A DNA stretch of 64,000 nucleotides from Geosiphon pyriformis uo1 (GCA_016748015.1 JAAOMT010000276.1:186001-250000); one strand, 5' to 3'. Shown: positions 10,155 through 42,581, counted from the first letter of the stretch. Notes: generated by a model from the letters alone, not told the origin. Numbers and translations are program-made.

Positions 10155-11135
10155 TGTTACCAGATGAAATTAGAAATATTGTTTAGCATGAAATTACTCT
10201 TATAAATCTTATTATTAATTAGCATATATTATCATTTCAAATTATCACTTATTATAGTAGCAAAATATATCCAAAATTATCATTTAATTAATAACCCAAT
10301 TTGTACATAACACAAATGTAATCTAATTGCAATGATCAATCATGCAATACCCCGAACTATGTAACATTCAAAAAGTTTGCCGAAATTTGTAAGAAATTCA
10401 CCGAAATAATTGATTATTAACCGAAATATCTAATAGTTTGCAGAAATAACTTGTAGTTCACCGAAATATATCTTTAGTTCAGCAAAATTATAGAAAATAG
10501 CAAAGTTCAAGTTCATAGAATAGTGTTATAACAAGTTGTATAAAAGAAAAGCTTCTCTCTTCGAAAAAATATATCTTACTTTAGATTTATTTCTTAAAAC
10601 TGTTTCTATACACACAAAAAGAAATAAACATTAAATAATTCGAAAAACCAAATTCTTTAATTATTGTACCTGGAAAATTCCCAAAACCCAACTAACATTT
10701 CGAAATTGATTAGCTACCAATTTCAGTAAACTGTTAGTAACTCCAGGCCTAGATAGAAAATATTTCCCTCAACAGAATTCTATTTCTTTTACATTTCTTT
10801 TATTTTTATTTTTTTTCTTATTATAATTATTAGGGTAGCCTACAGACAAGATTCCTGTAGAAGAGTTGACTTTTACAGCAAAGTAACTACACATTTTAAT
10901 GAGCTTTCAGATGAGCAATTCCTGGGAAAGAGTTGATGTTTACTACAACGTAATTACACAAAGTAACTGGCACGGAATTGGCTATTCCACTTATAAGCCC
11001 AGCAGTTCAAATTATAGGAGATAATTTGAAGATAAATTCAGTTACTGGAGGTTCAACCACATCCAGAAAACGTGAATTCACAGCAAACAGACATCAACAA
11101 CAATTAAGAAAAGAGACCAAAAACCTCTGGTAACA
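10155..11135 (+). repeat. 5' LTR of element A (981 bp)
   Basis: Terminal inverted repeats TGTTACCAG/CTGGTAACA; direct repeat of 19186-20147. Confidence 0.95.
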
Positions 11136-11150
11136 TTTGGTGCTCTCTTA
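11136..11150 (+). promoter_or_regulatory. Primer-binding site of element A (TTTGGTGCTCTCTTA)
   Basis: TGG begins 2 nt after the LTR end and is complementary to a tRNA 3' end ...GAGCACCA. The same core occurs in element B. tRNA identity (elongator Met or Ile-UAU-like) is not resolved. Confidence 0.75.
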
Positions 11151-11180
11151 TAAAAATAACACAGCAACAACAAATTCAAA

Positions 11181-14100
11181 GTGGTGACCACACCAAATAC
11201 AGCAACTCTAGAGTATTACCAGTCAATTTACACTCACTGCAAGCAAAGATTCAACATTCTAGACGGAATTGAAGTTGTCAAGAAATCAGTATACCAATAC
11301 ATTGAAAACCGCATCAACAATTATCTTTTTGGAAATTACAATATCTCAGAAGTTAGAAGCAATCTTTACAATAATTTAGCACACTATTCACAGTTGAGAA
11401 CTGAAGACCTTAACAGTGAAACATTTGCCACTTACTTTCAAGAACTTAATTTTAACATTATCAAGTACTGTGAAGAAACATATCTAGTGCAGTCTTAATA
11501 CTCTATTGATTTTGAATTGGAAACAGAAACAAGCAACAAAAGCAAACACAAATTGAAGCAATACTCAAAAACCACTCCAAATACTCCAATACTACTAAAA
11601 ACAACTGCCAAACACTTACAAACACCTGAACAAGAAACAAGTTCAAAACTTCCACTCACCATCACATCTTTTCTAGTTTTACTTACACAAGCACAAACAT
11701 CTAATTCATCCTTGAATCGATTTGTGAGACCAGAAGATTTTACATCACTCAGAAGTCCTACCAGACAGCAAGAACTCCTTCAAACTAGTTCCAATCTTCT
11801 TGATTTTCTAGCTGAAAATCAAAGTGAACACTCTGAGACAGCAGCAAATGAAAAAAACAACTCTAAAATAATTGAAGAAGAATCAATAGACAGTAAAAAC
11901 AAAAAAGACAAAATGACAGCATACATCACAAAAATCTCTGAATTTAATGAAGAAAACATTGAGACCAGTCCCCAAGAATAACTCAATTAAGTTACTAAAG
12001 CTGGAGATGCAAATGAATGGAATACTGCCAGAATGTTAAGAACAATTCCTTACTTTTTCAAAGGAACAGCAGGAGAATGGTTTGAAAACTTGGCTGCTCC
12101 ATTCAATGATTAGGATGCTTTCAAAGCAGTCTTCCTTGAACAGTTTACTGACAATAATACCTCCATCACCCTTCGAATACATTTTCACAATATTAAACAA
12201 GAACCCTCTGAATCTGTTATGACTTATATTGGGAAATTCAACAAACTTCTCAGATGAATTCGCCAACTTGAAACTAATGATTATTATTCTGATGCTCAAA
12301 TCTTGGATCAATTTATCGCTGATTTAAAGGATAAACTGATTAAAAAAGTTTGCCCACATGCCCTAGAAGATTTAAACTCTGCCATTCAGCATGCAAAGAG
12401 ATATGAAATGGCCATGGAAGAAGCCAATTGTACAAAACTTGTGAACTTAGCCATTGGAGAAACCAGCTTAGCAGCTGAAGAGAAAATTGACCAACTTGCA
12501 AAGAAAGTCGAAAACTATTTCACCAACCAACAACAACAGCAACCCCAAAGATATCAACCACCCCAAAGACGGAATCAAAACAACTTCACATTACTCTCTA
12601 ATAACCAGCCTCAAAGTNNNNNNNNNNNNNNNNNNNNTAAAAAGGTTCGCTCACATGCCCCAGAAGATTTAAACTCTGCCATTCAGCATGCAAAGAGATA
12701 TGAAATGGCCATGGAAGAAGCCAATTGTACAAAACTTGTGAACTTAGCCATTGGAGAAACCAGCTTAGCAGCTGAAGAGAAAATTGACCAACTTGCAAAG
12801 AAAGTCGAAAACTATTTCACCAACCAACAACAACAGCAACCCCAAAGATATCAACCACCCCAAAGACGGAATCAAAACAACTTCACATTACTCTCTAATA
12901 ACCAGCCTCAAAGTTGCCATTACTGTGGAATCCCTGGCCACTAGAAAAGATATTGCAGAAAGTTACAACGAGATCAACAAAATAGGAGTAATCAACATTA
13001 CCCTCCACCACAGCAATTTTATTATCAACCACCACTACCAGCTTACTATCCACCAAGATCCCAATACCCAAGTAACTATTATCAGTTCACCCCACAGCCA
13101 ATCCAACAGCAATACCAACAACTATCCACACAACATTATCAAGTACCTGCTCAAAGACTAATTACACAAAATCAATTCATACCACAAAACTGATACCAAG
13201 TAAACAACAATAGAATTAGTTCAAACAACCAATTGGTTCCTCAAAATTCTGCCCAACCAAGACCCAACCACTATCACACTCAACCCAGTTATTTAACAAT
13301 ACCTGAAGAACAGAATTTTCACCATACTGCACTCTCAGAAGATAGAGCTACAGCACAACAACAAAACCCTTCCTATACTCCTACCACAATCTCACCAGCC
13401 AGAATTGCTGAAAATGCCAATCTTTCAGATATATTCCCTTTTGAATTTGAAGCAAATGAATCACCATTCTTGTTTAGCAATGCAGCAGCTAATGAGCAAA
13501 AAGCCATCACTGCAATGTACACAGAAGCTAAAGTAGAAAGAAAGTCAATTTGCTTAATCTTAGACAATGGATCCACCGGAAGTATTATCACATATCAATT
13601 AATGCAGCAGCTAAAAAGAAATGTTGACTGACCAGCTCAGACAGTAATCATTACTGCTGATGGCATAAAAAAAACTCCAGTAGGAGAAATTGACAATTTT
13701 CCGTTCACTCTTGATGGAATTATCATTCCAGTCAAAGTTCTTGTAATAGATGCTCCCCAGTATTAAGCCCTTATTGGAAACAATTGGCTCCAAAAAGCCA
13801 ATGCAAAATTAGACTGGAAAACCCAAAAACTACAAATCTCTTACCAAGGACAACATGTCCAAGTACCTACCACTTGTGGTACATTTAACAAATGCTCTAA
13901 AAAAGCCCCGGCTTTTGAATTTAAACCAGAAGAAGAAAAACCAATAATCGAAACATTCATGACTTTTGGATCAACGTCCAATTGGGCCAATGAAACTGAA
14001 CAAGAACATTTTACACCACACTCCAAACCTGAAACCCCTGGATGGAATATCTCTTACTCAAAGCCTGAACCAAGGAAACAATGCCCCTACATTCCCCTTA

Positions 14101-16943
14101 AATATAAGGACTGCTGCAAGAAACTATTGTCAATGGGAGCCTGCATTTCACCTGAAGAAGAATATGAAAATCATACTTGTTATTACTACAAGGCTTGCCA
14201 CAGAAAACGATGAGGCCATCTAATAAAAAGAAGCGGAAAATGGGATAACACACCTTGTTTGACTTGTGGAGATATGCTACCAAAAGAATGCAATTGGATT
14301 GATGTAGCAATGGCTTTAATCAATGGAGCCACTCAAGAAAATGTTTGTCAAATGAAAGAATCAGAATACATTGCATATATTTTTGAAATCGCTGGATACA
14401 ACTATGAAGATGAAGTAGAAGTATATCACCAAATTGCCAGTCATACTTATCTGACCAAAAAAGCTCAAGCTCAACAGCTAGAGCAAATAAACGTTAAATT
14501 GTGTGAAAAATGCATAATGCCCTGTGATGAGCAATGGTGCCCTGAATGCTATGCTCTTAGCATTCCCTTACCCAGTGAAAACGATGAAAACAAAATTGAA
14601 TTTGGAGAACCTGAAGCAACAGAAGAAATTGAAACAATACCTATCTATCTTATCAAAAGTCAATCTGCCTTACAACTCAAATACTTCAACAACAACAGAC
14701 AAGGAATAAAACCCGAAAAAGCACATAAAATTGATGCTGGATATGACCTAAGATAACCAGACAAAAATATTCTCGTTCTCAAACCCAAATCTCTCACAAA
14801 AATCAACCTCAAAATTGCACTCAAAATTCTGCCAGGAGCAATGGTTCAAATTGCCTCCCGGTCCTCTCTGGCAAGCAAAGGAATCAATGTTAAAGGAGGA
14901 ATAATCAATGCTGGATATACTAGAGACATTACAGTGATGCTTCAAAATGAAACTGACAAACCATTCAAGATTGACCATGCTGAAAAAATTGCCCAAGCTA
15001 TTTACCTACCCCTAATCAACATTTTGAATTTGCAACTAGTTAATCAAAGAGAACAATTAGGAAAAAGCAATAGAAGAACCCAAGGTTTTGGTTCAACTGG
15101 ACAATTCACAGTTTCAGTTAATATAGCTCTTATCACACAGAATAAATTCCACCAGATTCTCAGACTTCCACAACCAATTACCATCTCACCCTTTGGAGAA
15201 CATCTGGAAATTTACACCTGCCCAAAGCCAACAACCATACAACAAATTTTTGAGTCCAATGACCAAGTCTGCTTGGAACATAATATTTCGATCTCAAACA
15301 TTTATATTCCAGAAGGAACAAAGAAAGTCTGAGTTACTTTTTACAATCCCAACAATTACCCCATAGTTCTATTAAATAACTTAGAAATTGGAGTCATTCA
15401 CAGTAACATCTTTCAACAAGAACTACCCCAGACAGTTCCCAATTTTTTGGAAATTATTGGACATTCACTACCAAAAATCAACCCAAATCCTAGCTCTGAA
15501 AACTACTATGTTGTCATGGAAAAATTATCTCGAATCAACATGGGACAATTTGAACCACAACAACGGAGCCAGCTCAAAGAGCTAATTGCAAAATTTGCCA
15601 ATATCTTTGCTGAAAACAACAATGACTTAGGAAGAACCAATTTGGTCCAACACCAAATTTATACAGGAGATGCCAAACCAAGAAGACAATAAACATATCA
15701 AGTTGCTCCAGAAAGCCACCAATTCATCCGAGAAAAAGTACAATAAATGCTTAACAATGAGTTCATCCAACCCTCCATGAGTCCTTGGGCTTCACCTGTA
15801 GTGCTAGTTAAAAAAAAAAATAGAAAGATATGATTTTGTGTTGACTATCAACAACTCAACAGTGTTACAATTGGAGATGCCTACCCTCTTCTCTGAATTG
15901 ATAACATGTTAAATGCCCTTGGAAAATCCAAATACTTTTCAACACTAGATTTAGAAAGCGGTTACTGGCAAGTTGCTATGGATCCCAAAGATCATCCCAA
16001 AACAGCATTTACCATCCAAGATAGAAATTACGAGTTCAATGTAATGTTTTTTGGATTATGCAATGCACCAGCAACGTTTCAGAGATTAATGGATGTTGTG
16101 TACCAAGAACTCCTTTGGAAGTCAGTAGTCATTTACCTTGATGATACTGATGTTTATTTTCTATTGTTCAAATTACACTTAAAACACCTGTGAGAAGTTT
16201 TTCAACGATTATGAAAAGCAGGACTAAAACTCAACATCGAAAAATGCTACTTTGAAAAAACAAGCTTGGCCTTCCTTGGTCATATCATTAGTAAAGATAG
16301 AATCAAACTGGACCCAGGAAAAATCAGTGCTGTCAAAAACTTCAAAACTCTTCGAAACACTACAGAACTAAGAGGATTTATAGGGTTAGCCTCCTACTAT
16401 CGGAAGTTTATCAAAAGATTCTCAGAAATCACAAAACCTCTCAACCAGCTTACCACCAAAAATGTCAAATACAAATGGACTACTGAATGCCAAAATGCAT
16501 TTGAAATCCTCAAAGAAAAACTAACAACAGCTCCAATTCTTGCCTGCTCAGATTTCAGCAATCGATTCCGATTAGCAACAGATGCCTCTTATACTGCCTT
16601 TGATGCTATCCTATCACAATTGGATGACAATGGAAATGAGTGAGTAATCGCCTATGCCAGCAGAACATTAAAACCAGCTGAGAAAAATTATCCTACCACA
16701 GAACCAGAAACAACAGCCGTAATCTGGGCCCTATACCACTTCAATCTTTATCTCAGGCCTAAAAAATTCGATATTATCACTGATAATATTGGACTCAAAT
16801 GGCTTCAGAACAAAAATACTTAGCTGAATGCAAAACAAATTCAATGGACAAGATTTCTAGCAAACTATCAATACATAGTACATCACAAACCAGGAAAACT
16901 CCACATCAATGTTGACTGTCTCTTTAGAATGAGACAAGATTAG
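11181..16943 (+). pseudogene. Element A Gag-PR-Cys-rich-dUTPase-RT-RNase H polyprotein, single frame with nonsense stops
   Basis: All ORF-track pieces fall in one frame. CHYCGIPGH..RYC knuckle; LILDNGS protease; dUTPase AGYDL/SRSS/GIINAGY/RRTQGFGSTG (~14680-15100); RT DLESGYWQ, FGLCNAPATFQR, YLDD; RH TDAS...NVDCLFR. Confidence 0.92.
12618..12637. other. Assembly gap (20 N) flanked by a ~280-bp duplicated gag segment
   Basis: About 12340-12617 is repeated at 12638-12914 on the other side of the N run. Confidence 0.9.
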
Positions 16944-16994
16944 AAAACACAAAAACCAACACTCAATTTAACCAACCAAAACAGCCAACAAACA

Positions 16995-18380
16995 ATGAAT
17001 TCAGAAAACTACAACAATTTCAAACAATATTTGAAAACATTAACCATCCCAACAGATTGGTCTCCAGATGAAAAACATTGACTACAACAACAAGCCAAAC
17101 AATATTTTCTACATAACAACATTATTTATTATTAAAATTTCAAAAACTCAGACAAACCACTCAGATTAATACAAGAACAGAAAAAAGAGACTATATTATA
17201 CAACATGCACTCAGATTCTTCATCAGCACACTTTGGAAAAGATAGCACCACCCAAAGAACACTAGAATACTACTTTTGGTCTTGAATGAGAAAAAACATT
17301 CACGAATATGTCAAATCTTGTGATAGTTGTCAAAAAAAAGAAGGAAAACGTCCTACTGAACTATTAAATCCAATCAAAGTTGGAAAACCCTTTGACCGAA
17401 TTGGTATCAATTTAGTCAGACCACTATCTATCACCATTCAAGGAAACCATTATATTGCAGTAGCTGTAGACTATCTTACTAAATGGCCTAAAGCCAGAGC
17501 CATTCAACGAGCAGATGCGAAATAAGTAGCAAATTTCATCTATGAAGACATCATTTGTAGACATGGATGTTCAATTAAACTTTTATCCGATCAGAGAACA
17601 TACTTTGTAAACAACCTGATACAAGAAATTTGCAAACAATTCAATGTCAAAAGACTGCTGTCTTTGCCCTACCATCCACAAACAAACGGACTTGTGAAAC
17701 GTTTTAACAGAACATTGTGTGAGTCATTAGCCAAAATCTCAACCAATTTTGAGCAAAAGTGAGATATCTTTATTCCATCAGTGTTACTAGCATATAGAAC
17801 ACTAAAACAAGATACCACAAAACACACACCATTTGATTTAACTTATGGAAGGACAGCAACATTACCAATTAGTTTTACAGTAGAAACATACCCAGCACAA
17901 CCAATCAATAAAAACTATTTCCAGAAAACACTACAACGAAGAGCCTACATTCTGCTTAGCACATTGAAAGGAAAACAACGAATAGCAGCAACTCATATTG
18001 AACATTCTCAAGCTCAACAAAAAGAAAGACATGACAACAAATTACCATCTATTACCAATAAATTTAAAGTTAGAAATAAAGTTTTCTTACACAAAACTAA
18101 AGCTGAAAAACAATGGAATGGAAAATTTGAAAATAAATGGGATGGACCATTCTTTATCCATGAAATTCTAGGCAACGGATCATACAAGCTAAGACTTGAT
18201 GACAAAATCCTAGCAAAAGTTGCACATAGAGATCGTTTGAAACACTATAATTCCAGAAACAATCCTGAACCATTAGTTCCACAAATTGGCATACATTCTC
18301 CTTTAATCAATCCTGAAGATATTCTCTGGAATTTAGAACCAATAATTGTCATTGAACAACCTCCCAACTTGAACACTTAA
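16995..18380 (+). pseudogene. Element A integrase (HHCC, DDE core, GPF/SH3-like C-terminus, no chromodomain)
   Basis: ATG MNSENYNNFKQYL; HSD...HFG...CDSC; RIGINLV, VDYLTKW, SDQ, YHPQTNGLV; KWDGPFFI; tail LEPIIVIE. Confidence 0.88.
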
Positions 18381-18497
18381 TTTAAATTTATCATTATAGT
18401 TATATCATTATAATTTAGAAACAATCTTACAAAAACAAAACAAAAATAACATAAAAACCCATACACCAAAAATAATTTTCTTTTCAAATCTCTTATA

Positions 18498-19174
18498 ATA
18501 ACTATTCCTCAAAACATTCAACAATTATCCCAAAAACTAATATTAGCTTTAAAAACAATACCCGAATTATCTATTACTGTTATTGAAAACCACATTAATT
18601 ATACCCAAACAGAAGTAGTCACAAATTTAGCCCCAAATTCACGAAAATATCACCCATATAAGAAGAACACAAGAAGTTATTCTGGAATTCACCTGCCAGA
18701 ACTTTTAAAGCTTGCTTTAAGAGAAAATTTAATGTTCACTCCTATTAGTATTCTACCAAATGCTACTATTCAACAAAAACTTCAACTGTGTCTTAATAAA
18801 GAGAACCATGACTATACTCCAATATATAGATATTTCTACATTGAAAAAACACTTCACGAATGAAAACAAAAGCTTACAGCAGCAAACCTCACAAAAGAAG
18901 CTATTCAAAAACAACTTCACAACAAATTTAAAACAACAGCTGGACCTACAAACAGTTGCTATAAACTAAGAGCTGCTTTTAGACTTTATGACCTATTCCA
19001 CACCTGTAAAAACGTCCTACAAAACCCAATTTTACAACCTTTGAAGATTCAATACATCAGAAAGCTTACAGAACTGAAATTTCAACAATTTTCAGACCAA
19101 ATTTCTTCAATAATTTTGGATTATTATCTGGAAATTACAGACAGTACTTGGACTTCAATGGAGTTCAGTCTTGA
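18498..19174 (+). pseudogene. Element A ORF3, unknown soluble protein in the env position
   Basis: Hand translation from ATA (probably a former ATG): TIPQNIQQLSQKL...YRYFYIEKTL...TKEAIQKQ...LRAAFRLYDLFHTCKNVL...IQYIRKLTELKF. One internal TGA. Homologous to element B ORF3. Confidence 0.75.
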
Positions 19175-19182
19175 GGAGAAGG
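19173..19182 (+). promoter_or_regulatory. Polypurine tract of element A
   Basis: GAGGAGAAGG ends 3 nt before the 3' LTR. Confidence 0.8.
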
Positions 19183-19185
19183 TTA

Positions 19186-20147
19186 TATTACCAGATAAAA
19201 TTAGAAATATTGTTTAGCATGAAATTACCCTTATAAATCTTATCATTAATTAGCATATATTATTGTTTCAAATTATCACTTATTACAGTAGCAAAATATA
19301 TCCAAAATTATCATTTAATTAATAACCCAATTTGTACATAACACAAATGTAACCTAATTGTGATGATCAATCATGCAATACCCCAAACTATGTAACATTT
19401 AAAAAGTTCGCCGAAATTTGTAAGAAATTCGCTGAAATAATTGATAGTTCGCAGAAATAACTTGTAGTTCACCGAAATGTATCTTTAGTTCAGCAAAATT
19501 ATAGAAAATAGCAAAGTTCAAGTTCATAGAATAGTGTTATGACAAGTTGTATAAAAGAAGAGCTTCTCTCTTCGAGAAAATATATCTTACTTTAGATTTA
19601 TCTCTTAAAACTATTCCTATACACACAAAAAGAAATAAACATCAAATAATTTGAAAAACCACATTTTTTAATTATTGTACCTGGAAAATTCCCAAAACCC
19701 AACTAACATTTCGAAATTGATTAGCTACCAATTTCAGTAAACTGTTAGTGACTCCAGGCCTGGATAGAAAACGTTTCCTTTGACAAAATTCTATTTCTTT
19801 TACATTTCTTTTATTTTTCTTTTATTTTCTTATTATAATCATTAGGGTAGCCTACAGACGAGATTCCTGTAGAAGAGTTGACTTTCACAGCAAAGTAACT
19901 ACACATTTTAGTGAGCTTTCAGATGAGCAATTCCTGGAAAAGAGTTGACATTTACTACAATGTAACTACACAAAGTAACTGGCATGGAATTGGCCATTTT
20001 ACTTATAAGTCCAGCAGTTCAAATTATAGGAGATAATTTGAAGATAAATTCAGTTACTGGAGGTTCAACCACATTCAGAAAACGTGAATTCACAGCAAAC
20101 AGATATCAACAACAATTAAAAAAAGAGACCAAAAACCTCCAGTAACA
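19186..20147 (+). repeat. 3' LTR of element A (962 bp)
   Basis: Direct repeat of 10155-11135, lacking one ~20-bp U3 repeat unit. Confidence 0.95.
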
Positions 20148-22246
20148 CTAACAAGCTGAAATCAATCATCACTCTGTTAACTCTATCTTTGTGAATGTTT
20201 CCAAAAAACCCAATAAACCTCTTACACATTTTGATGTGCCACAAACTAGCTCTCAGTAAGGCCAACCAACAGAATTATATGCCTTCCACATATTCTGCAA
20301 AACCAACCAAATTTCTCTATTTTTTTTAAGAGTATTCTCCACAACTGAACCAATCGCAAACACCAGAGATTGTGTAAAAGTATCTTGGAACACCAATAAA
20401 TTATCATCCTAGAGAACACCAAACTTATTACAAGCCAAAAAGATGCGATCAGACAAAATCTTAGACAAAATCTTCCTGGCAGTCTCAATTAGAGCAATAG
20501 GTCGAGTGTTTGTAAGAACCCTATTCTAATCATGAGGCTTAAGAATCATTAAGACCCACACCCTTTTCCACAAAGCAGGCACTATGCCAACAAATAAGCA
20601 TATATTCAGCAATACCAAAAGACATTCCAACATCTCACCACAACCATGTTTCCAAAATTCATTGGGAATGCCAGACAAGTCAGCAGCTTTGTCATCAGGC
20701 AGACCATTAGTAATTAAAAGTAATTCACCCATGCTAATCACACTTATCACACCAGAAAAAGCATCATCCCTAACATAGTTCAAAAGTGCATACTGATGAA
20801 TCCAGAGATCAGACAGCACCATAAGCATTACATGCTTTCATGTCCAACTCTTCATAATCTTGTCAACACTTGACCTGATCTCCTCTAGCTCCAATATCAA
20901 CTTATCATCAACCACCAAGTGATCCAACACCACCTTTCAAAATGGCCAATCCAGAACACTTCTAATTATACTCCCCTTGTTTGAGCAAAACCATTTCATA
21001 CACTTCTTAATAGCTTTTCTAATAGTAGTCTCTTGTAGCAACTTTGACTCATACATCTTGGATTTTCTGTACCCCTTTCTGACAAGCAACAAATAACTTA
21101 AAAGGTCCTTCACTTTTTGGCCACCACAAACTATGTCCTCTAGAATGAGAGCTTTACCAGCATCTAGAGCCGACCATTTCCTTATGAAACAATTGAAACC
21201 AGAAGCATTAGCAGAGGTCAGACATTTGATTATCTTGGCAGCCAGCAATTCCAAACCCAGGAACTTAGAAGAATGTTTATTTTTTGAGCACTGAAAATTA
21301 CAGAACCAATGTCTGGAAAATATCTTATCTGCAGAATCCACCACCATCTTTTTTAGCAAAGACTACATAGCATCCAAATTAAAACCAGCAGCAGTGCCAA
21401 GGAACCTTTCCTTTACCTCCAACATCTTAGCAGAGGAACATTCCTTAAAATAGGACTACCCAACACCATCAGCATCCTTGATCCTAAACTTCCAATGATC
21501 CCTGTTGGTCTGCTTATGCAGACCATTCAGCCAAACATCTAAGAGCCCATTCAGACCAACTAAAACCATGACAGATTTGTGATCCGTATCGAAAAAATCA
21601 GAAACAGAATTGACACAATGTTTTACAACAACAAAAGATAGAATCCCACTAACAAGAATAAAATCAATTATCTTTTCTACCTCCCTAGAATTGTTCCATG
21701 TAACTGCTTTGACCAAAGAGTGTTCAGCAAACAAATTAACTAAACTCAAACCCAAACAGAACTTAAAATTCACACTTCTCCCAGAATTATTCTTGTTGAA
21801 ATTACCATCCAGAACAACAAAAGTGCTGGAGTTAACAGCCTTAGCAATAAAAAAATTCACTGTAGAAGCCTGAGCAAACCTAGTTCCAGAAGAAATGCCA
21901 GCATACAAACCCAGAATTGTAACTGAAAGCTTGCCTTTAAACAAAAGCTGAATCAAAATCAAATAATCAGGAACCTTCTTGACCCTAAAAACATGGCAAG
22001 CCAGAGAGATGTTCATAATCACAGTAACACCAGCACCGAGATAACCAATATCCAACTCAGAAGTAAAAATCCAAATCTCATTAAATTTGTCTTTGATCTA
22101 TGATCTGGAAAAAGACCTCAATTTTGTCTCAGCAATAAAGAAAACCATATTCCCAGAACTCACATGCCAACAAACAATGTTTGCTTGTTTTGCAGAGACA
22201 TTGACACCCTGACCATTACACGTAGCAAATTTTTAGATCAGACCAC

Positions 22247-24115
22247 TTATTGGAATAATGGATTTAGGGACAAACTAGAACCAGAACACAAGAGATCTAA
22301 TCTCATTATGATTAAACCGAATAAAGCCTCCAGAGCAGACATTTTGGACTCCAAACTGCCCACCTTGGAAGTGAGAACCTTTGAACCACTCGAACTAAGA
22401 CCATTCGCAAACTTACCACCACTTAAAAAAAGGAGAGCAGGCGAAGCTAACATACTATCCAGAGCCATATTCAAATCCACAACCAGAGCCAAAGGCACAG
22501 AAACAGCCAAAGGAGAAGCACAAAGTGGAGATGCCAATGGCACCAGTTCAACAAAACTCAATTTTTTAAGAATGACAGAAACTTGATCTGATAGAATTTC
22601 CAAAGAGTGCTTTAAAACTGCCAAATGATCATCCAATCCATCGTCTTGAAAACCAAAAGAACCCAAAGAGAAAGGCAGACCACCAGAAAGCAAACTGGAA
22701 CCAAAAGAGAAGCCACCAGAAGAGGAGTCAAAAAACACTACTTGAGCTCATGATTTGCCACCAAAAGCAGCAGGGCGAGAGATAGGAACCCTTTTTTTTG
22801 CATACAACTTGGCCAAGCAAAAACAATTGAAACCAGAGACAGACTTTTTGAATAGACTTAAGAGTTCAAAAGACAATACTACCAACACATCACACTCCAG
22901 TGTCAAATGGCCAAAACACCCATATTTCTCACATTTAACCAAATCCAATCTGGCCCATGAGAGTCGCACACCACCAAAAATAGGCTCAGTATGAAAGGCA
23001 GTATCCAAATCCTCTTCAGACTTAAAGCTAACCACAGTACAATGAACCCTATTACCAGTATCCAAAAATTGATTAATGATACAGGTTTTTCCACCAGCCC
23101 CATTCAGAAGAGTACTAAGATCGTGTGCAGTCATTTCCACTGGCAAAGTAAACAAAAGTGCTCTAAACTGATTTCTCAATGCCCATGTATCACAATCTCT
23201 CACAGTCTTGGCCACATATACTGAATTTTTTCTGATCAGAAAAGATCATTTTGAGGCCAACAGATTGGCCTGCCTTGATTCATTGAATTCTATCACAGCC
23301 TTTTGCCATATCTCAATTAACTGAATTTTGATCAACTTAATTTGCCCAAACTTGGAAACTGCAGCGACGATCATATCTTTAGGCATGTCCATGAGAATTT
23401 TCTTAATTACCACAGCCTGATCTGAACGAATTTCTTGTTTCTTAAAATCGCTGTTTATGTTGATCTCATTTTCACCAGCCAATAAAACAGCCTTCTTCAT
23501 GCTATCCTTTGATATAAATGTTGATCTGATGATCCCCTTAAATTTTAAGAGAGTAGTGGCCCCCCCAAAATCATTGATTTTTGAAAAAATTTTTCTGATG
23601 AATTGAGTTTTTTGTCTAGCCAATTTTCCATTCACAGCCAAAAGATTGATGTCTAAAGCAAATGATTTCTTAACTGACACCTCTACAGGAGTTTTGATGA
23701 TCTTGGGATCAATCCAAATCTTATTCAAAGGAATCTTTTTCTTAAGAAGAGGCAGAAGGAGCTTCACCTTTTCATCTATTTCAAAGTCAGGAGAACCAAT
23801 AAGAAAACCGAAATTTGCTCTTGTATTCACTTATTTAGCCTTGGGAGTGTTAACAGCTAAATCCAAGAGAGAACCATCAAAACCACCAGACATACTAACA
23901 TCTTTATCATCACCAGATAAGCTCTTTACATCAAAATATACACAAGCACCAGAACCAGACTTCAAAGAAATATCCTTTTTATTATCAGAGTGTTTAACAT
24001 TTCCAAGAGAAGCCTTCTTTCTTTGTGAAAAAGAACCACCAGTAGGACCATAAAACACGTCCTTAGGAGCCTTCTTATTAGACATACTACCACTAGAGAC
24101 AGTCTCCAAATCCAC
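22247..24115 (-). pseudogene. LINE ORF1: two RRM-like domains and a CCHC knuckle, one frame with nonsense stops
   Basis: Four ORF-track pieces share one frame: VVIKKILMDMPKDMIVAAVSKFGQIKLIKIQL..WQKAVIEF (RRM), ALLFTLPVEMTAHDL (RRM2), CEKYGCFGHLTLEC (decayed CX2CX4HX4C). Confidence 0.8.
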
Positions 24116-32446: not shown

Positions 32447-33510
32447 TGTTACAGGTAAACTTGGTGGGTATGAAAAATGGTAACATTTGGTGCTCTCAAT
32501 TATGGATGATGCATCTTCTGCGTAATTCTGTTGGCTTAGTCTTGATTATCAGTCTCTAAAAGTCTATTCTTGGATGTGAATTTACCCGTTGAGTTCTTTG
32601 GTTATAAGGCACAGAGTTTGTTTTTTGTCGATTACAACGTTTTTTGTAAATATGAGCTTTCTTCTCCGAGCTAACGAGCGCAGTCGTTAAGATCTGGTGT
32701 TGTCTTTTCACCCTTCTGGTAAGCTAACAAGATAATGTTAATATCCAAAACTTAGGAGGAGCTTCCCTCTTTTACCAGGCTATCACAAAGTTTATTCCCA
32801 GACAGTCGATTTTACTATATTGCCACTCCACAAAAATAAGACAGAAAAAGAAAGAAAAAGAGAAAAAAAAGATAAATTAGTATCATCAATTACCGTGATC
32901 AAGAGCGATTGGTCCAAATTGTTAATAGGTTCAAAGCGGTTATGCTAAGAGCATCTGTCCTAGAACGGAGGTACAAGACAAGGGTTAATTCATGTAAATT
33001 CCATGAAGTTCGAGAACATAAATTCATGATTCTGATTTTTTTTTAATAATTGGTTTATTTCAAAAGATGAAATAGGGAAGATAATAAAGAATGAAAATGT
33101 ATAGATATTTAATTCTTATTTAGAGATTTGTATTTATCTGTCTGTCTTTTCTCACTTCTATAACTACTTGCTTTTATACATTCTTTTGGTTTTACAGGAT
33201 TGCTTTCAATTGTTTTGCTATCGCTAGCTATTGCTTTGTTGTTTCTGTTATTGCTTCGTTTTTCTACATTATCACTAGTTATTCTATGTTATAACACATT
33301 ATCTGATGTTATTACATGTTATTCTGTGTTATCCTGCATTATAACATGTTATCCTACGTTATTGTGCACTATTCTGTGTTATCCTGCATTATAACACGTT
33401 ATCCTATATTATAATATATTATTCAATGTTATTGTGTGTTATTCTGTGTTATGTCATGTTTTGGTCACGTTTCTTCATAACTTTGGATCAGTTTTTCTAT
33501 TTGGGTAACA
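32447..33510 (-). repeat. 3' LTR of element B
   Basis: Direct repeat of 41518-42581, preceded on the - strand by the purine tract AAAAAGAGAGGGA. Confidence 0.95.
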
Positions 33511-33524
33511 TTATCCCTCTCTTT

Positions 33525-34259
33525 TTAAAATTGAGCTTCTGTAAAACTGTATGTATTTGTTATTGTGGCTTTGTTCATGTAATGTTCGATTGTTGCCTCG
33601 AGTATTGCCTTTTGTAGGTCTTTGAACTGTTGATTGGTTATTCGTCCTATGTTGTTAACTATTATGGTTTTCATAAATCCGTTCAGTAGTATGTTTGAGC
33701 AATGTTGAAAGATGGCATATAGTCAGTATGTTGCTTTGTAATATAGGGTCAGGTTGTTTTTCCTTATAAATTTTTCTACTTGTTGTATTGCTTCTTTGTT
33801 GAATGTTTTCTGGCTGAGGTCTTTGTATAGTGTTTTCAAGTCAAGCTGTTCTCCAATTTTGTAGAACCAATAAGCTGGAGAAAGTCTTTTTTTCCATTCC
33901 TGGGCATTGTCAGGTGTCCACTCCCCTGTTTTGGGGAGTTCGGTCCTACGAGCTAAAGCTTCTTTTATTTCTTTAAGCTCGGGGACCAAGTATCTTCTTT
34001 TGTAACCTTTTTCTTGTTCTTTGCCTCCTTCTTTTCTACCTTCCACTTGAAGGCAATTTTTCCTCCAACATTGTCTTTCGGGTGGTGGGTAGAGAAGGAA
34101 ATGTTTAGTTCTAATTGAACTCTTGTCCTCCCCTCTCCTGCTCTTATCTTTGTACCGTATCTCTTTTTTATCAATTGTTATTTCTATTTGAGATGTCAAT
34201 TTTTGAATTGTTTCAAATAATTGTTTAGATAATTTTAAAATTTGATCTGAAAGGTTCAT
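33525..34259 (-). pseudogene. Element B ORF3 (~244 aa, one internal TGA)
   Basis: MNLSDQILKLSKQL...YWFYKIGEQL...NKEAIQQV...YKATY*LYAIFQHCSNILLNGFMKTIIVNNIGRITNQQFKDL...SFTEAQF*. The stop abuts the PPT. Confidence 0.8.
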
Positions 34260-34339
34260 GTTGAAATTTCTATCGTTTTTTGCTGCTTTTTGGATGCTAT
34301 ATATATTTGAATTCTCCAATTTAATTTGCTGTCCATTGT

Positions 34340-35707
34340 CTACGTTTTGATAACAATGATTGGTTCCAGATCTTGTGGTATATCTTCTGGTCTGATTAAT
34401 GAAATTTGTGTTCCTAGTTGAGGTACTGATGACAATGATTCCTGTTTTTCATGATAAATTTTTAACCAATTTCCATGCACTACTTTCTTTAAAATCCTGT
34501 CTTCCAATCGTAATTTGTAAGCTCCATTTCCTAACACTTCATGTATGTGGAATGAACTGTCTCACTTTGGGTTGAACTTTCCACTCCATTGTTTCTCAGC
34601 TTTTGTACGATGTAACAGTACTTGGTCTTCAATCTTGAATTCCATTGGTTGTTCTGATAGGTGTTTATCATGTCTTTTTTTTTGTCGTTCTTGAGCATGA
34701 TTAATATTGTCAGCTGCTGTTCTTCGATTGTTTTTCAACGTTTCTATTAGCTGGTACGTTTTTTGGTGTAAAGTAGCTTCAAAATTCTCTTCATTGATTG
34801 TTTCTGTTGGGTATGACAGTATCACTTGTTCAATTGGTAACATAGCTTTTTTTCCATAGACTAGTTTAAACGGTGTAAACTGAGTCGTATTTTGTTTCAA
34901 TGTTTGGTATGCAAAGAGTACAGAAGGTATAAATAAGTCCTATTCTTGTTTGTTTTTATGACTTATTTTTGCTAGTGCTTCGCACAGTGTTCTGTTAAAT
35001 CGTTCTACCAGTCCGTTTGTTTGTGGATGATATGGTGACAATAAAGGTCTCTTTATTCTAAACCATTGGCTTAATTCAGTCAGCATATTATTAACGAAGT
35101 GTGTTCCTTGATCAGATAATAATTTTTTCGGACATTCATGTTGGCAAATTAAGTCTTGATGCACAAATTTGGCTACTGTTTTGGCATCAGCCACTTGGAT
35201 TGCTCTGGCTTCTGGCCATTTTGTAAGATAGTCTACAGCTATAGCGATATAGCGATTTCCTTGGGATGTAACTGAAAGAGGTTTAACCAAGTCAATCCTA
35301 ATTCTATCAAATGGATTTCCAACTGGAATGGGTCGAAGTGGTTCTGTTGATCTTGCTCCTCCTCTTCGCTGGCATGCGTCACAATTGAGCACATATTTGA
35401 AAATGTCTTTGTATATCATTGGCCAATAGTATAAGTTTAGTGTTCTTTCGAGAGTAGCATCTTTGTTAAAGTGTCCTGCAGTCAGATCTGAGTGCACACT
35501 ATATAATATAGTTTCTTTTTTACTGTTCTTGATTAGTTATTGTGGGTTGGGGTGGTTTTGGCATTCTCGTCAATATAGTTGGTTGTCTTGAATAAAATAA
35601 TTTCAGGCTTGTTTTTATATGGTACTTTGTTCCTGTTGAGATAATATTTCTTTGAAACATAGTGTTAATAGGTACTGATGTAGTCGTTGATAAGTGAGTG
35701 TGTTCAT
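34340..35707 (-). pseudogene. Element B integrase
   Basis: ATG MNTLTYQRLHQYL; HSD..GHF...CDAC; IDLV, VDYLTKWPEA, SDQGTHF, YHPQTNGLVERFNRTL; tail LEPIIVI. Confidence 0.9.
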
Positions 35708-35717
35708 GGGTCTGGGA

Positions 35718-38700
35718 TTAGGTTTGTGGCATCTTCAACAAACTGTCAGCATTGGTGTTCTTGGATCTTTCCTTGTAATGGACTTTGAGTGGGAATTGTT
35801 GTAAATAAGTACTCCATCTCGCATATTTTCCTTCTAGTTGTGGATTGTTAAGTAACCAAATAAGTCCTTTGTGGTCAGTATATAGGTCAAATGGTTGACT
35901 AAAGTAATGTTTCCAAGTCTGTATGGCCCAATAAATGGTGAGACATTCCAGATCTGTTGTGTTGTAATTTTTTTCTGTTGGGCTAGTACTGCGACTAGTG
36001 TAGACAAATGGATGTTCTCTATTGTCCAGTCCTATCTGTGATAAGACTGCTCCTAGAGCATTTTTTGAGGCCTCCGTAGTGACAATAAACTGTTTAGTGA
36101 AATCTGGGTAAATTAGGATTGGGAATGTGATCAATCACTGCTTGAAATAGTCAAATGCTTTCTGTTGATCTTCCTTCCACAAGTACAGTACGTATTTGGA
36201 CAACAATTGATGGAGTGGTTTTGCGATGTTTGAGAAACCTTTGACAAATTGATGATAATATCTTGCCAATCCTAGAAATTTTCATAATTCTCTGAGGTTA
36301 ATTGGGGCTAGAAAATCCTTGACTTTTTGTACTTTATCTGGATCGGGTTTAACTCCGTCTTTGCTGATTACATGTCCTAGGAATTTTAACTCAGTTTTTC
36401 CAAAAAAGCACTTCTCGGGATTGAGTTTCAATCTGGCACTACGAAGGTGTTCAAAGACTTGTTGCAGGTAAAGCAGATGGTCTTCGAATGTTTCGGAGAA
36501 CACATTTGTGTTGTCTAAGCAGACTACTACTGATTTCCAGAGAATTTCTTTGTATACTACATCCATCAGGCATTGAAACATGACAGGAGCATTACAAAGT
36601 CCAAAAGGCATTACGTTAAACTCAAAGTTTCCATTTCGAGTGGTAAACGCTGTTTTTTTTTGTCTTTGGGGTCTATTTCAACTTGCCAGTAACCACTTGC
36701 TAAATCTAATGATAAGAACCATTTCTTTTTCCCTAGATTGTTCAGAATTTCCTGGATGAGGGGAGTGGGATAACTATCTCCTCATGTGATGCTATTTAGT
36801 TTTCGATAATCTATGCAGAATCGCACTTTTCCATTTTTCTTGGTGACCAAGACTACTGGAAAAGACCAAGAGCTTAACAATTCTTTGATTAGGCCGTTAT
36901 CAAGCATCCGTTGCACTTCTTGCTTAATTAGATTATCGCCAGATGGGGGTACATGGTAAGTTCATTGCTTAATTGGTCAAGCATCTCCTGTATCAATCTG
37001 ATGCTTTACAATGTCGGTGCGTCTGAACTCATTTTTACTGGCAAAGACATTGGCATACTGATTCAGAAGGACTTTGAGTTGCATTTGTTGCAGGGTACTT
37101 AAATTTCCTAAATTCAATTTATTGATCTCTTCTGGTGTGAACAAGTAACTTTCTTTTGGCAAATTCCATACTTGTGAGGTAATGTCACAGAATAAGAATA
37201 ATTGTGTGAAATCTGGAATGGACTGGGGTTTTTCAGGATTCTGAATATCTGCGGATATGGAACTGACGAAGGTCCCTTCGGGGATTTCAATGACATCTTC
37301 TATCGGGTTGTGGATGGGGATTTTGAAGTGTTTATGGGCTTTGGCTGGTAGGTATAAATTAGCAACATCAGCTAAGGAACAGATTTCAGGACTGGCTTTG
37401 AATAACAGGGCTTGATCTTGGATTTTTTGATTCACCTTGAGGATGTATTGTCAGTATGAAGGAATGGAGATGACGGTGTCAGTGTTGATAAATTCTATCT
37501 GATCACTGTCTTCCTCCGTGAAATTAACTGGTATGTTTCCTCTTCCACTTGATCCAAACCCATTGATTTCTCAGGCAGTGAGGCCTAACTCTTCTCAGGT
37601 TGTTACCGGGGTTAATTGGGGTATTTTGACTAGAGGTAGGAAGATAGCTTGGGCAATCTTTTCTTGTGATTCTATTTTGTAGGATTTGTCCAAATTGTTC
37701 TGTAGCATTATGATGATGTTTCCCATGTAATCAGCATCAATGATTCCTCTTTTTATGTCGATTCCTTTCTTGGCTAGACTAGATCAAGAGGCAACTTGTA
37801 TCATTGTACTAATAGGAATTTCTAATACTATCTTAAGATCTATTTTTACAAAGGAATGTGGGGCTATAATGATGGGTAATTGTCCAGGGTATCATAAGTC
37901 AAAACTGGCATTGGTGTCATGTGCTCTTTCGGGGCAGATTCCTTCCTCGTTGTCACTGTACCATTTTAGCTCTAGTTCTTTGGATAGGTCAGAATATGTG
38001 AGATACTGTTCTGTTTCAGTATCCTCAGTTGGATCTTGAAATGACATGTCCTCGGTGATCAATACCTCTTCTTCGGGCTCAGGTAATTTAGTGATTGGAA
38101 ACAGTATTCTTGGAGGCAGATTGAACATGAGATCACATTCGTCGCAGTACTGGAAGTGACAGGGGATCAAACAGTAATCGCACAGTTTGGTATTCAAATC
38201 GGCCAACCTTTGCTTCTGTTCTTCGCAAGTTGGGACCAATTCCTGATATCAGTTTTGAAATGCATCTGGGTCATCTGTGAAGAAATCATCCTCGGGGTAG
38301 TTGGGTCCATTATATTTGGGCATCCAAGGGTTGTCTTTGATTTCTTGTATTTCTTCGGACATGGCACCTTTGGCCTTGGCGCTTGCCATTCTCCAGATTT
38401 TGTGGTCATCATATAGATAACTATCCAGCTTGTTGAGGGCTCATTTCCAAGCGTCCTTGATGGGGGTTTCCTTTCATACCCAATCGTTGATTAATATGGT
38501 GTATTGACAAGCCTTGTCGCATGTTCCTCTTCTGCCAGACACATTATTCTAAAGTCCTTTATCTGGCAGGATTTTGCCACATGCGAGGCATGGCATGTTG
38601 TTCTATTTGTCTCGTCGTTTTGGTCATCCAAATCTTTCTAGTAAACAAGGTCTGCAATAATATTTGGTGGCGGTAGGCCATTCTTCGTTGTCCCCAATAT

Positions 38701-41455
38701 ATGCACTCATAGTGGATAGTTTTTTTCCACAATTAACACATATTAGTCTTGGGGGTTGGTAAAATAAGTTTTTTTGGTCCGAGGTTACGTATTCTAGTGA
38801 TGACAATTGGGGTTCTTCTTCAGCTCTGCCTTTTCCTTTTTCTTCTCAAGTTGGTGGTGTGGGTAGTTCAGTTCGATAATCATCCACCCATGAAATTTGA
38901 TAGGTCTCGATGGTTGGTGGCATTGATGTGTCTTCAAATTCAATAAGGGGTTCCTTGGTACATTGGGTTTTAAAGTGTCCGCACATAGCTGGGACTTAGG
39001 CATGCTGTTCATTGAACATGAGTTAAAGTTCTTGGGTGTTCCAGTTGAGAGTAGTGTTGGCTTTTGACAATCAATTGTTTCCTACTAGAGCTTGATATTG
39101 AGTAGCTTCCATGATGAGTACTTTAGTAGGGATTTGGATTTTATTAATCTTGAAGGGGAAGTTGTCAATTTTTTCTATTGGGGTTTTTGTGTTTCCATCT
39201 GCTGTAATGATTTGAGCAGTAGCAGCATGGTCTACTCGGTGACCTAGTTGGTCCATGAGCTGCTTCATGATTATGCTACTGGCTGATCTGCTATCCAGGA
39301 TTAATTTAATGTCTATTCCTCCGACTCTGACATTGGTGTATAGGGCCATTATTGGTTTATCCTGATTGATGGCTGCTTCACTAAAAAGGCTATGGATGTT
39401 CAAATTATCAATGTTAAAAAGAAATATGGTGGCTAGGGTGGTGTCTTCAGTAATAGTGGCTGGTGAGATATTGCTTTTTGTTTGCTTGGAAGGTTAAAAG
39501 ATTTGTTCTATATCCCCCTCTTCCACAGGTGTAGATTTATAAAAACCCAGTTGGTATTGGTCAAGATTGGGCAGGACCACGAAGGATTAGTCGAGACAGT
39601 TCACTGTTGGTTTGCACCTGATTGTTGTTGGGATTCCTCCATCCCTGATTATAGTCTATAGCTCGAGGTCTGGATAAACTGTAAGGGGAAGTTTAATAGT
39701 GAGGGATTGCTTGTGTCATTGGTGGTGGTTGATAATAATTCTGGGGTGGTGGTTGAGTATACGGGACTTGTTGTGCATATAAGGGTGGTTGATTCTGAGG
39801 TATGGAATATTGGGGTACCATGTTTTGCTGATATCTGGGTTGCTGGTATGGGTTTCCTTGATTTTGGTTCATAATCTTCTTTTTGCAGTCACGGGCAATG
39901 TGTTCAGGTTTTTGGCAGTAGTAACAGTTGTGGAGATCAGATCTTCAAGGTTGTTGCTGTTGTTGACAGTTCTGTTGCTGTGGGTATCTGCTGTTGTTGT
40001 TATTTTCTCTCCATTGGGGTGGTTGGTAAGTTCCTGTAGTTCTGGCTAAGAATCTCTCAATTTCTGAGTTAGTTTCTCACTCAATTGGGTTATCTTTGTG
40101 TTGATGTCAGAGGTTCTATTAATGGCTAAATTAACAGCTTGGGTATGGTTCGCTTCTTATTTTACAGACTCAAAATCGTGAGCAAGAGCAATGGCATCTT
40201 GTAAACTGGTCGGATGGCGGGGTCTTATGGATCTTAGAATACTACTCCGCAATCCTTTAATGAATTGATTAAAAACTTGTGCTGTGGTGTAGTAGTCTCT
40301 TTCAATAGCTAATATTTGACGCAGGATTTGATTGAATCATCCGAGATAAGTAGTTACTGCTTCGTAATCTTTTTGTTTAATTATGCTGAATTGCAATTGG
40401 ATTAACATATTGGGGTCATAGAAGTATTGCAGAAATGCAAGTTTAAACTCAGTAAAGAAGGTAGGCTTCTTTGCCAGGCTCTGGTACCACGAATTGGCAG
40501 TTCTGGTTAAAAAGAACGGCAGTGCCTGAATTGTGCAGTCATTGTTCTAATCATTAGCGGTAATTGCTTTCTCGGCATTTGTGATCCAAGAATATGCATT
40601 ATCTTCTTCACCAGAGAATTTTTCCAATTTAGTAATATCCCAGTAAGCCATGATCCAGTTAATAGGTGAGATGTTACTGGTTATGTTTAAAGGGATTGGT
40701 GTTTACGTATTCAAGTGTTCTCCAGGTGCTAATGCTGGTTGCTTTCCTTTGTCGCTTAAACCAATAGGTTGTAAGATAGCTGTTTCTTCTATTAGGGGAG
40801 ATGCTGATTCTGTTAGGTTTTGTGCTAGTGGCTGTTCCCAAGTTGATGAGTTTTCTTCTGTTTGACCAGCTGCTGGAGTAAAATTTCCAAACAGTGATCC
40901 ATATTTTCCTAGTAATTTGGTCTAACTGTGTTGATTCCAAGGGTGTAGATTTCCAGGAGTTCATGATGTTTTTGACTGGGTTTCCGGGGGTGGGTTGAAT
41001 ACAATTCTACTTTGGAGTGTCTGATGATATGATGGAATTGTTGGGGAGAGGATTCTTGGTTTCTTATTGACTGTGAACTTGGCTTGGGCAGTTACGGGGT
41101 TGTTGGATTTGTTTTCATATTCCTTAGAATCGAATTCTACTGATTGTTGTACTTGAGGGAATTGTTGTGTCACATAATATTTAATGTCTGTATTGATTAT
41201 GCGCAGAGTTTCAGCAATTGTTCGGGTAGTCGTGGCTGTTGAGTACCCTAGTAAGCTTTGATGGATTTGTTTTCCAAGTCTTCCTGTATCAGTTGCGCAG
41301 CCTAACAAGCAGTCAATTTTTGCGTTGATATAGTTACAAAAATCACTTTCTGCATAAGTGGTTTCTGCTGGTATTCCTAGATCTTTTCGAAAGTATTGAA
41401 ATAGTGCTTTTCTGTATGAAGAGTGGTCCTTTCCTATTGTTCCAATAGTTGCCAC
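35718..41455 (-). pseudogene. Element B Gag-PR-Cys-rich-dUTPase-RT-RNase H polyprotein
   Basis: Zn knuckle at ~39885-39930; LILDSRS protease; dUTPase ASFDL, GIIDADY, GFGSSG (~37545-37960); RT MPFGLCNAP, CLDN (decayed YLDD); RH TEAS..YTDHKGL..NADSL. One slippage frameshift in the A-run at ~36655. Confidence 0.9.
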
Positions 41456-41498
41456 TTTTATGTATTTTTGGGGGTGCTCTATCTCTGTGGATTTATAA

Positions 41499-41515
41499 CC
41501 TCACAGGGAGCACCA
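41499..41515 (-). promoter_or_regulatory. Primer-binding site of element B (TGGTGCTCCCTGTGAGG)
   Basis: Starts 2 nt after the 5' LTR. Its complement CCTCACAGGGAGCACCA looks like a tRNA T-stem/acceptor 3' end (elongator Met- or Ile-UAU-like). Confidence 0.8.
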
Positions 41516-41517
41516 AA

Positions 41518-42581
41518 TGTTACAGGTAAACTTGGTGAGTATGGGAAATGGTAACGTTTGGTGCTCTCAATTATAGATGATGCATCTTTCGCATAATTTT
41601 GTTGGCTTAGTCTTGATTATCAGTCTTTGAAGATCTATTCCTGGATGTGAATTTACCCGTTGAGTTCTTTGGTTATAAGGCACAGAGTTTGTCTTTCGTC
41701 GATTGCAACATTTTTCATAAATGTGAGCTTTCTTCTCCGAGCTAACAAACGCAGTCGTTAAGGTCTGGTGTTGTTTTTTCACCCTTCTGGTAAGCTAACA
41801 AGATAATGTTAATATCCAAAACTTAGGGGGAGCTTCCTTCTTTTACCAGGCTATTACGAAGTCTATTCCCAGACAGTCAATTTTACTATGTTGCCAGTCC
41901 ACAAAAATAAGACAGAAAAAGAAAGAAAAAGAGAAAAAAAAGATAAATTAGTATCATCAATCACCATGATCAAGAGCAATTGGTCCAAATTGTTAATAGA
42001 TTTGAGGCAGTTATACTAAGAGCATCTGTCCTAGAATGGAGGTACAAGACAAGAGTTAATTCATGTAAATTCTATAAAGTTTGAGAACATAAATTTGTGA
42101 TTCTGATTTTTTTTTAATAATTGGTTTATTTCAGGAGATGAAATAGGGAAGATAATAAAGAATGAAGGGGTATGGATATTTAATTCTTGTTTAGAGATTC
42201 ATATCTATCTGTCTGTCTTTTCTTACTTCTACAACTACTTGCTTTTATACATTCTTTTGGTTTTACAGGATTGCTTTCAATTGTCTCACTATTGTTAGCT
42301 ATTGCTTTGTTGTTTTTGTTATTGCTTCGTTTTTCTACATTATCACTAGTTATCCTATGTTATAACATATTATCTGATGTTATTACATGTTATTCTGTAT
42401 TATCCTGTATTATAACACATTATCCTATGTTATTGTGTGCTATTCTGTGTTATCCTGCATTATAACACATTATCCTATGTTATAATGCATTATCTAATGT
42501 TATTGCACATTATTCTGTATTATGTCATGTTTTGGTCACGTTTCTTTATAACTTTGGATTGGTTTTTCTACTCAGGTAACA
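41518..42581 (-). repeat. 5' LTR of element B
   Basis: Direct repeat of 32447-33510. Confidence 0.95.

Follow-up and report, generated by a model that had tools for sequence, protein, structure and literature searches.

Integrase as a separate cistron in a lineage of Ty3/Gypsy retrotransposons that includes two elements of Geosiphon pyriformis

In the usual long terminal repeat (LTR) retrotransposons and in most retroviruses, integrase reaches the particle as part of a polyprotein. Here, we analysed a 64,000-nucleotide stretch of the Geosiphon pyriformis uo1 assembly (GCA_016748015.1, JAAOMT010000276.1:186001-250000; hereafter the window), which carries two full-length Ty3/Gypsy elements, A on the plus strand and B on the minus strand, and found that integrase is encoded outside Pol in an open reading frame (ORF) of its own. 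This stand-alone integrase is real and lineage-wide, and is not a product of decay. An earlier note on the window had placed integrase in a separate cistron in both elements, and both junctions were confirmed in their coordinates, spacer lengths and frames. In A, RNase H ends ...DCLFRMRQD and is followed by TAG at 16941-16943, and the ATG at 16995 opens MNSENYNNFKQYL; the spacer holds a single G in 51 nt, and since 51 nt equals 17 codons, integrase is in frame with Pol. In B, RNase H ends ...DSLLKMPQT, followed by TAA at 35720-35718, and the ATG at 35707 opens MNTLTYQRLHQYL. The proposed layout of Gag-protease-dUTPase-reverse transcriptase (RT)-RNase H / integrase / ORF3 holds as well.

Both elements carry the structural marks of Ty3/Gypsy, namely two LTRs ending in TG...CA (the start of one 3' LTR has decayed), a primer-binding site, a polypurine tract and a 4-bp target duplication, which reads CTGA / CTAA in A and ATGT / ATAT in B, each with a single G/A change. 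The Pfam domain order is likewise that of Gypsy, with Gag (detected in A), protease, dUTPase, RT, RNase H and integrase, and both RT and integrase are of the Ty3/Gypsy type (HHCC, D-D35-E). The integrase of A has its own Met, an HHCC zinc finger, an rve core and an SH3-like end, two of its three D-D-E residues being gone by decay; that of B keeps HHCC and D-D-E. In both elements, a Cys-rich insert without a Pfam match lies between protease and dUTPase (window ~14000-14700 in A and ~38800-38100 in B). Both copies are dead: in A, 31 stops interrupt a frame of 2460 codons, several frameshifts are found in B, and identity within the LTR pairs is down to 94% and 91% (6-9% different), with differences that are almost all transitions.

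Over RT and integrase, A and B share about 66% DNA identity, and they also share the LTR termini and the first 8 nt of the primer-binding site, indicating that they are kin and not independent cases; their LTR bodies gave no blastn match at E 1e-8. The earlier note had stressed that the stop offset is the same despite unrelated LTRs. The offset is indeed the same, 4 residues past the D-x-L-S-R position in both, although between relatives, and as a fixed trait it did not survive comparison with the related loci described below, where the Pol tail is 1-31 residues in 36 of 44 and long in the other 8. Being heavily decayed, A and B alone cannot exclude chance, whereas the family data do exclude it.

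We aligned 1490 contigs of run X1 on positions 16780-17200 at 80% likeness or more. Decay stops near A's junction reverted to sense in 84% (16821), 42% (17079) and 69% (17133) of the contig depth, while no change fell at 16941-43 or 16995-97 among the 40 changes listed for A-family contigs, the weakest of which reach ~10-15% of depth. Five contigs diverge inside A's stop and run on as TAA plus a different A/C-rich spacer. Two points weaken this result: the contigs come from one run, possibly the window's own source, and 13 weaker changes lie beyond the 40 listed. By subtraction, these include one T>C and eight C>T, and the latter cannot touch the stop or ATG codons. The earlier note had suggested looking in both families for a fixed stop and Met with a spacer of free frame. 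For A, stop and Met were unchanged among the changes listed, and the spacer frame is free in relatives; for B, the split is supported by its relatives.

With A's integrase as a protein query, we obtained 279 matches among 674 candidates. Of the 120 listed, 92 have their initiator Met in the alignment column that holds the Met of A and B, a Met that is invariant in 72 aligned proteins; most of the remainder begin at a later Met. When longer proteins were considered, only 3 of 302 candidates matched A's integrase, at 29-39% identity, which is weak evidence, and the 14 best long RT-RNase H relatives by blastp all lack integrase. On the other side of the junction, 23 of the 120 listed RT-RNase H relatives end 1-6 residues past D-x-L-S-R. 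The named carriers were Rhizophagus irregularis, R. clarus and Entrophospora candida, indicating that the lineage includes Glomeromycota; most other matches were metagenome proteins.

A search of metagenome stretches with an alignment of stand-alone integrases supplied the related loci, the best 80 of 511, which therefore define the lineage and give no measure of its commonness. In 46 of them the junction can be seen from both sides, with the end of RNase H and the beginning of integrase. None of the 46 was fused, so that the sense codon (CAG, CAA or TGG) with an in-frame linker between RNase H and integrase, which the earlier note had set against its own claim, was found neither here nor among the changes listed for A's family. 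In every one of these loci Pol stops before, or at most 14 nt inside, the integrase start, and 44 have an ATG. Among these 44, the three frames of integrase relative to Pol occur 11, 21 and 12 times (11 in frame), and Pol ends in TAA (25), TGA (13) or TAG (6). Nineteen loci are intact on both sides, in that at least 200 codons are open upstream and integrase itself is open for 400 codons or more. At the locus L032 a whole element is preserved intact, with TAATG at the junction and the arrangement Gag / protease-RT-RNase H / integrase / further ORFs; here Gag and protease-RT-RNase H are separate ORFs too (L032:478-3147 and 3216-5711), so that one strand holds four cistrons or more.

An RT-RNase H tree with 127 rows placed all but one of the 52 fused polyproteins in a single branch (SH-like 94), which contains none of the 22 split loci. 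A single origin of the split was not rejected (p-AU 0.71, with 18 split against 18 fused rows picked from the 127), and the free tree needs two changes. A search of viral contigs returned one distant integrase locus. Taken together, A's family, the 46 split loci and the 92 relatives with their own Met support integrase as a separate cistron. Full-text search, mostly without subscription papers and with Repbase, GyDB and the PMC2864245 supplement outside it, found no published description of a separately encoded Gypsy integrase, and the accessible part of bioRxiv 10.1101/2023.09.13.557621 leaves integrase unmentioned.

The geometry of the junction bears on how integrase could be made. Pol overlaps the integrase start in 17 of the 44 loci (-1 and -4 twice each, -8 six times, -10 once, -11 four times and -14 twice). 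From the statistics on ATGs, splice signals and UGGGA, and overlaps, we left out near-duplicates (L037, L051, L066, L007) and loci with apparent long spacers (L029, L031, L073). All 15 non-redundant overlap loci overlap by 1-14 nt; as a control, we took the non-overlap loci and looked past their integrase ATG for the first stop out of frame, which lies within 14 nt in 11 of 48 frames (median 28); in the unused frame of the overlap loci a stop does so in 7 of 15. Spacers are depleted of ATGs (11 against 24.7 expected, 7 of these 11 in L027), with no depletion in the 60 nt upstream of the stop (24 against 19.7 expected), and the integrase ATG is the first ATG past the stop in 20 of 24 non-overlap loci, A and B included. 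Overlap loci have another ATG 7-87 nt upstream of the integrase ATG. A purine occupies -3 in 32 of 39 integrase ATGs, compared with 142 of 217 internal ATGs. No excess was found for a branch point plus YAG within 80 nt before the ATG (11 against 9.5 expected) or for YAG within 40 nt (32 against 35.2 expected), and UGGGA, the TURBS motif, stands upstream of the stop in 4 of 39 loci (1.7 expected). The junction folds of A (16900-17030, z -0.94) and B (z -0.37) are not notable. Two of the longest gaps, in L029 and L031, reflect premature tail stops (true gaps 62 and 61 nt), and outlier spacers occur in L027 (365 nt with several ATGs) and L073 (727 nt of decayed coding-like sequence).

The overlaps of at most 14 nt, the ATG depletion that starts at the stop and the lack of a splice or UGGGA excess favour termination-reinitiation at the nearest AUG, which we regard as the best-fitting mechanism and as moderately probable. 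Gag-to-RNase H ends at the fixed stop, and ribosomes that have terminated there would start again on the same genomic RNA to make integrase. Post-termination 40S subunits may stay on the RNA and then reach the AUG either backwards, over at most 14 nt, or by forward scanning of a spacer poor in AUGs, of 51 nt in A and 10 nt in B and up to about 160 nt in relatives. Of the two routes that the earlier note had left side by side, sequence statistics thus favour reinitiation over a subgenomic RNA.

Several observations weigh against termination-reinitiation. A gap of at least 24 nt separates the two frames in 27 of the 44 loci, and viral termination-reinitiation tolerates short gaps, up to 29 nt in the accessible part of PMC5972666. 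As for the close contact of stop and start in the TURBS type (calicivirus, influenza B), the picture is mixed: it is seen in 17 of the 44 relatives and roughly in B (10 nt), not in A (51 nt). An ATG is present in 4 of 24 spacers, and tests on UGGGA, k-mers and splice signals found no shared cis-element for short-tail elements, A and B among them. Moreover, the loci are kin and were picked by stand-alone integrases, so that the p-values overstate independence and the three sequence tests, all on kin, are not independent. Short overlaps could also result from selection that keeps the Pol tail short.

One sub-clade carries an RNA motif of ~40 nt between the stop and the integrase ATG, found in 20 of 81 loci (for example L030:4464-4503). 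It has two stems, outer and inner, with a conserved purine-rich internal loop between them, and a conserved loop of 8 nt; a U- or A-rich tract often precedes it. Among the 14 pairs proposed, 8 (5 of the 6 in the inner stem) vary on both sides across 18 aligned copies; paired cells amount to 93% against 79% in shuffles, the structure being drawn from these same sequences, and RNAalifold recovers the same two stems. A single copy is not unusually stable (z -0.65), and two proposed 2-bp pseudoknot helices, which show no change on both sides, were rejected as unsupported. In 19 of the 20 loci, 17-28 nt separate the start of the loop from the ATG (20 nt in 10 loci), while the stop lies 61-190 nt away where it can be placed, indicating that the motif is registered to the start. 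The motif is present in 7 of 8 long-tail loci and in none of 36 short-tail loci. Its RNA model found no match in A and B, and it added only 2 loci, both near-copies, to its 18 training rows. Rfam 15 gave no match at E 10 for L030 4380-4560 and 6 weak matches in 5 loci elsewhere, none on the motif core or near the gathering score; viral contigs gave no match to the motif pattern. The motif may serve in ribosome delivery, as a processing site or as an integrase-binding site, and a structured RNA before the AUG would help to deliver the ribosome or to hold integrase in this sub-clade. In L014, L030, L033, L043 and L049, RNase H is followed by a further 216-315 residues of Pol, an acidic tail that contains Cys/His clusters and co-occurs with the motif.

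Copy-specific decay, as the origin of the stops and of B's frame offset, would fit the transition-derived stops that abound in both copies and the other frameshifts of B, and the family contigs cover A's junction. However, no change is listed at A's stop while neighbouring stops revert, and the 19 relatives intact on both sides are all split; decay is refuted for A and for the lineage, and we give it a negligible probability overall. A single protein restored from RNase H and integrase through a small intron, readthrough or a frameshift is also very improbable, since three frames, three stop codons and overlaps all occur, the Met is invariant and there is no splice-site excess. In line with rejoining, 11 of the 44 loci, plus A, are in frame, and one gene model of Rhizophagus clarus, P0245, runs from RNase H into integrase but leaves out both the last part of RNase H and the integrase Met. 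Yet P0245 also lacks the integrase core, as would a prediction artefact, and its joining is probably such an artefact, caused by the split.

Translation of a separate integrase gene from its own subgenomic RNA, generated by an internal promoter, splicing or RNA cleavage, deserves more weight but is still unlikely. It would suit the free spacer length (24-365 nt in non-overlap loci) and the good start context with its purine at -3; ORF3 needs an expression route too, and a precedent for a spliced mRNA is that of foamy virus Pol (PMC3705302). On the other hand, it fails to explain the overlaps of at most 14 nt and an ATG depletion that starts at the stop, the upstream ATG of overlap loci would demand a leader that is very short or leaky, and neither splice signal is in excess before the ATG. 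Internal ribosome entry at the integrase AUG, guided by an RNA element and independent of upstream translation, would be clearest in the long-tail sub-clade, where the motif is registered to the ATG and many of its proposed pairs change on both sides. We consider it improbable, given that the motif is absent from A, B and all short-tail loci, that it could equally be an integrase- or Gag-binding site, and that tight overlaps in other loci suggest coupling.

The closest solved relative of the integrase profile was Ty3-G Gag-Pol (E 3e-53). A and B resemble Ty3/Gypsy (Metaviridae, yeast Ty3) in their LTRs, primer-binding site, polypurine tract, target duplication and protease-RT-RNase H-integrase order, and they depart from the canonical form in that integrase lies outside Pol with its own ORF and Met, a conserved ORF3 follows, and the polyprotein-cleaved integrase typical of Ty3 was absent from the 46 loci. 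The integrase Met maps near a conserved helix within the RNase H-integrase linker of several fused elements. The integration enzyme also has its own ORF in DIRS and Ngaro, where it is a tyrosine recombinase, and in Ginger and Polinton, which are DNA elements without RT or LTRs; here, in contrast, a DDE integrase occupies the usual Gypsy position inside an LTR element. A Ginger or Polinton identity was ruled out by RT-RNase H directly upstream of integrase, as seen in A, B and the 46 loci, and by terminal repeats, as found in A, B, L018, L031, L032, L073 and L074.

A dUTPase between protease and RT is shared with PosPlaTy3-5 (PMC2864245); the accessible part of that paper describes elements with one or two ORFs and dUTPase-bearing elements. 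The stop/start overlaps in 17 of the 44 relatives (TAATG, ATGA, -8 to -14) recall victoriviruses, hypoviruses, caliciviruses, influenza B and SART1, and the AUG-poor spacers of similar size in most others, A included, recall LINE-1. In the accessible part of PMC5972666, the precedents for termination-reinitiation are victoriviruses, hypoviruses and SART1 with overlaps and LINE-1 across a 63-nt spacer, and no LTR element is among the cases. Our elements differ from these systems in being LTR elements with an upstream ORF of 800 to more than 1600 codons, no UGGGA, and a gap and frame that vary widely, and coupling is suggested here by sequence. In foamy virus, Pol comes from a spliced mRNA, is made apart from Gag and is packaged by another route (PMC3705302), and the likeness is that a replication enzyme not covalently joined to Gag has to find a separate way into the particle; there the whole Pol is split from Gag, whereas here integrase alone is split off and no splice acceptor was seen.

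Lacking a covalent link, free integrase would most likely get into the particle bound in cis to the RNA from which it was translated, or else to a neighbouring Gag-Pol chain; capture in cis would be favoured if the genomic RNA itself is the template. In many relatives, integrase is followed by a ~145-residue helical ORF3 family, in several of them via a short gap or a -4 or -8 overlap. ORF3 of A and of B is homologous to that of L006 (E 5e-15 and E 6e-10, respectively). The predicted ORF3 structure is a confident helical model (pLDDT 90.7); fold comparison gave no clear match (best Z 5.6), no viral match fell under E 0.001 and no Pfam family was common to its 14 members, and the best atlas match was a Mucoromycota cluster (0.94), with recognition under threshold. 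The next ORF begins on or beside the integrase stop in L016, L019 and L048 (-8, -4 and -1) and after a 3-nt gap in B (34340-34336), which hints at a second restart; the ORF3 of B may start at the ATG 3 nt past the integrase stop. As a tentative reading, to which we attach rather less belief than an even chance, a polycistronic genomic RNA of an old fungal Gypsy lineage would yield Gag-Pol, integrase and ORF3 by successive stop-restarts after very long ORFs, with the ~40-nt RNA of one branch landing the ribosome or capturing integrase.

A widespread lineage without the link between integrase and polyprotein shows that this link is dispensable, and a free integrase would force the virus-like particle to recruit it separately. 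The junctions form a natural series, with overlaps of 1-14 nt and spacers up to ~160 nt, with and without RNA structure, in which to study restart after a very long ORF and the packaging of a lone integrase. For annotation, such integrases are listed in databases as lone 'DDE transposases', and intact elements may be mistaken for broken ones. The parts of A and B are collected in the table.

Table. Parts of elements A and B, in window coordinates
Feature	Position	Strand	Remarks
Element A	10155-20147	+	full-length LTR element
A, 5' LTR	10155..11135	+	ends TG...CA
A, primer-binding site	11138..11149	+	2 nt past LTR
A, ORF1	11160..16943	+	single decayed frame, exact start uncertain
A, Gag capsid	~12045-12320	+	in ORF1
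A, protease	~13527-13787	+	in ORF1
A, dUTPase	~14712-15101	+	in ORF1
A, RT	~15810-16289	+	in ORF1
A, RNase H	~16551-16868	+	in ORF1
A, Pol stop codon	16941..16943	+	TAG
A, spacer	16944..16994	+	51 nt, A/C-rich, without ATG
A, stand-alone integrase ORF	16995..18380	+	461 codons, 5 decay stops
A, ORF3	18450..19217	+	decayed, extends into 3' LTR
A, polypurine tract	19173..19182	+
A, 3' LTR	19186..20147	+
Element B	42581-32447	-	full-length LTR element
B, 5' LTR	41518..42581	-
B, primer-binding site	at 41515	-	follows 5' LTR
B, ORF1	35718..41500	-	Gag, protease, dUTPase, RT, RNase H; frameshifted, exact start uncertain
B, protease	~39334-39065	-	in ORF1
B, dUTPase	~37942-37544	-	in ORF1
B, Pol stop codon	35720-35718	-	TAA
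B, spacer	35708..35717	-	10 nt, +1 frame offset
B, stand-alone integrase ORF	34340..35707	-	455 codons, 6 decay stops
B, ORF3	33528..34336	-	decayed
B, 3' LTR	32447..33510	-

Within A's Gag, a run of N at window 12341-12914 is flanked by a 277-nt duplication of 99% identity and is probably an assembly gap. The LTRs of B carry 10-bp tandem repeats near one end (window 33229-33462 and 42300-42543), and L073 and L074 have similar 10- or 20-bp arrays. Elsewhere in the window, decayed repeats at 3788-4504, 9120-9929 and 20526-24489 had no Pfam match and resemble pieces of non-LTR retroelements. On the minus strand, a host gene of the Set1 type (SET, N-SET) lies at 45095-50441 and a long multi-exon host gene, with no Pfam match in the pieces scanned, at 56043-61322. 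The plus strand holds a DDE_1 transposase remnant at 54233-55606 and, at 30803-31814, a solo LTR of A's family that is 82% identical and flanked by an exact 4-bp target duplication.

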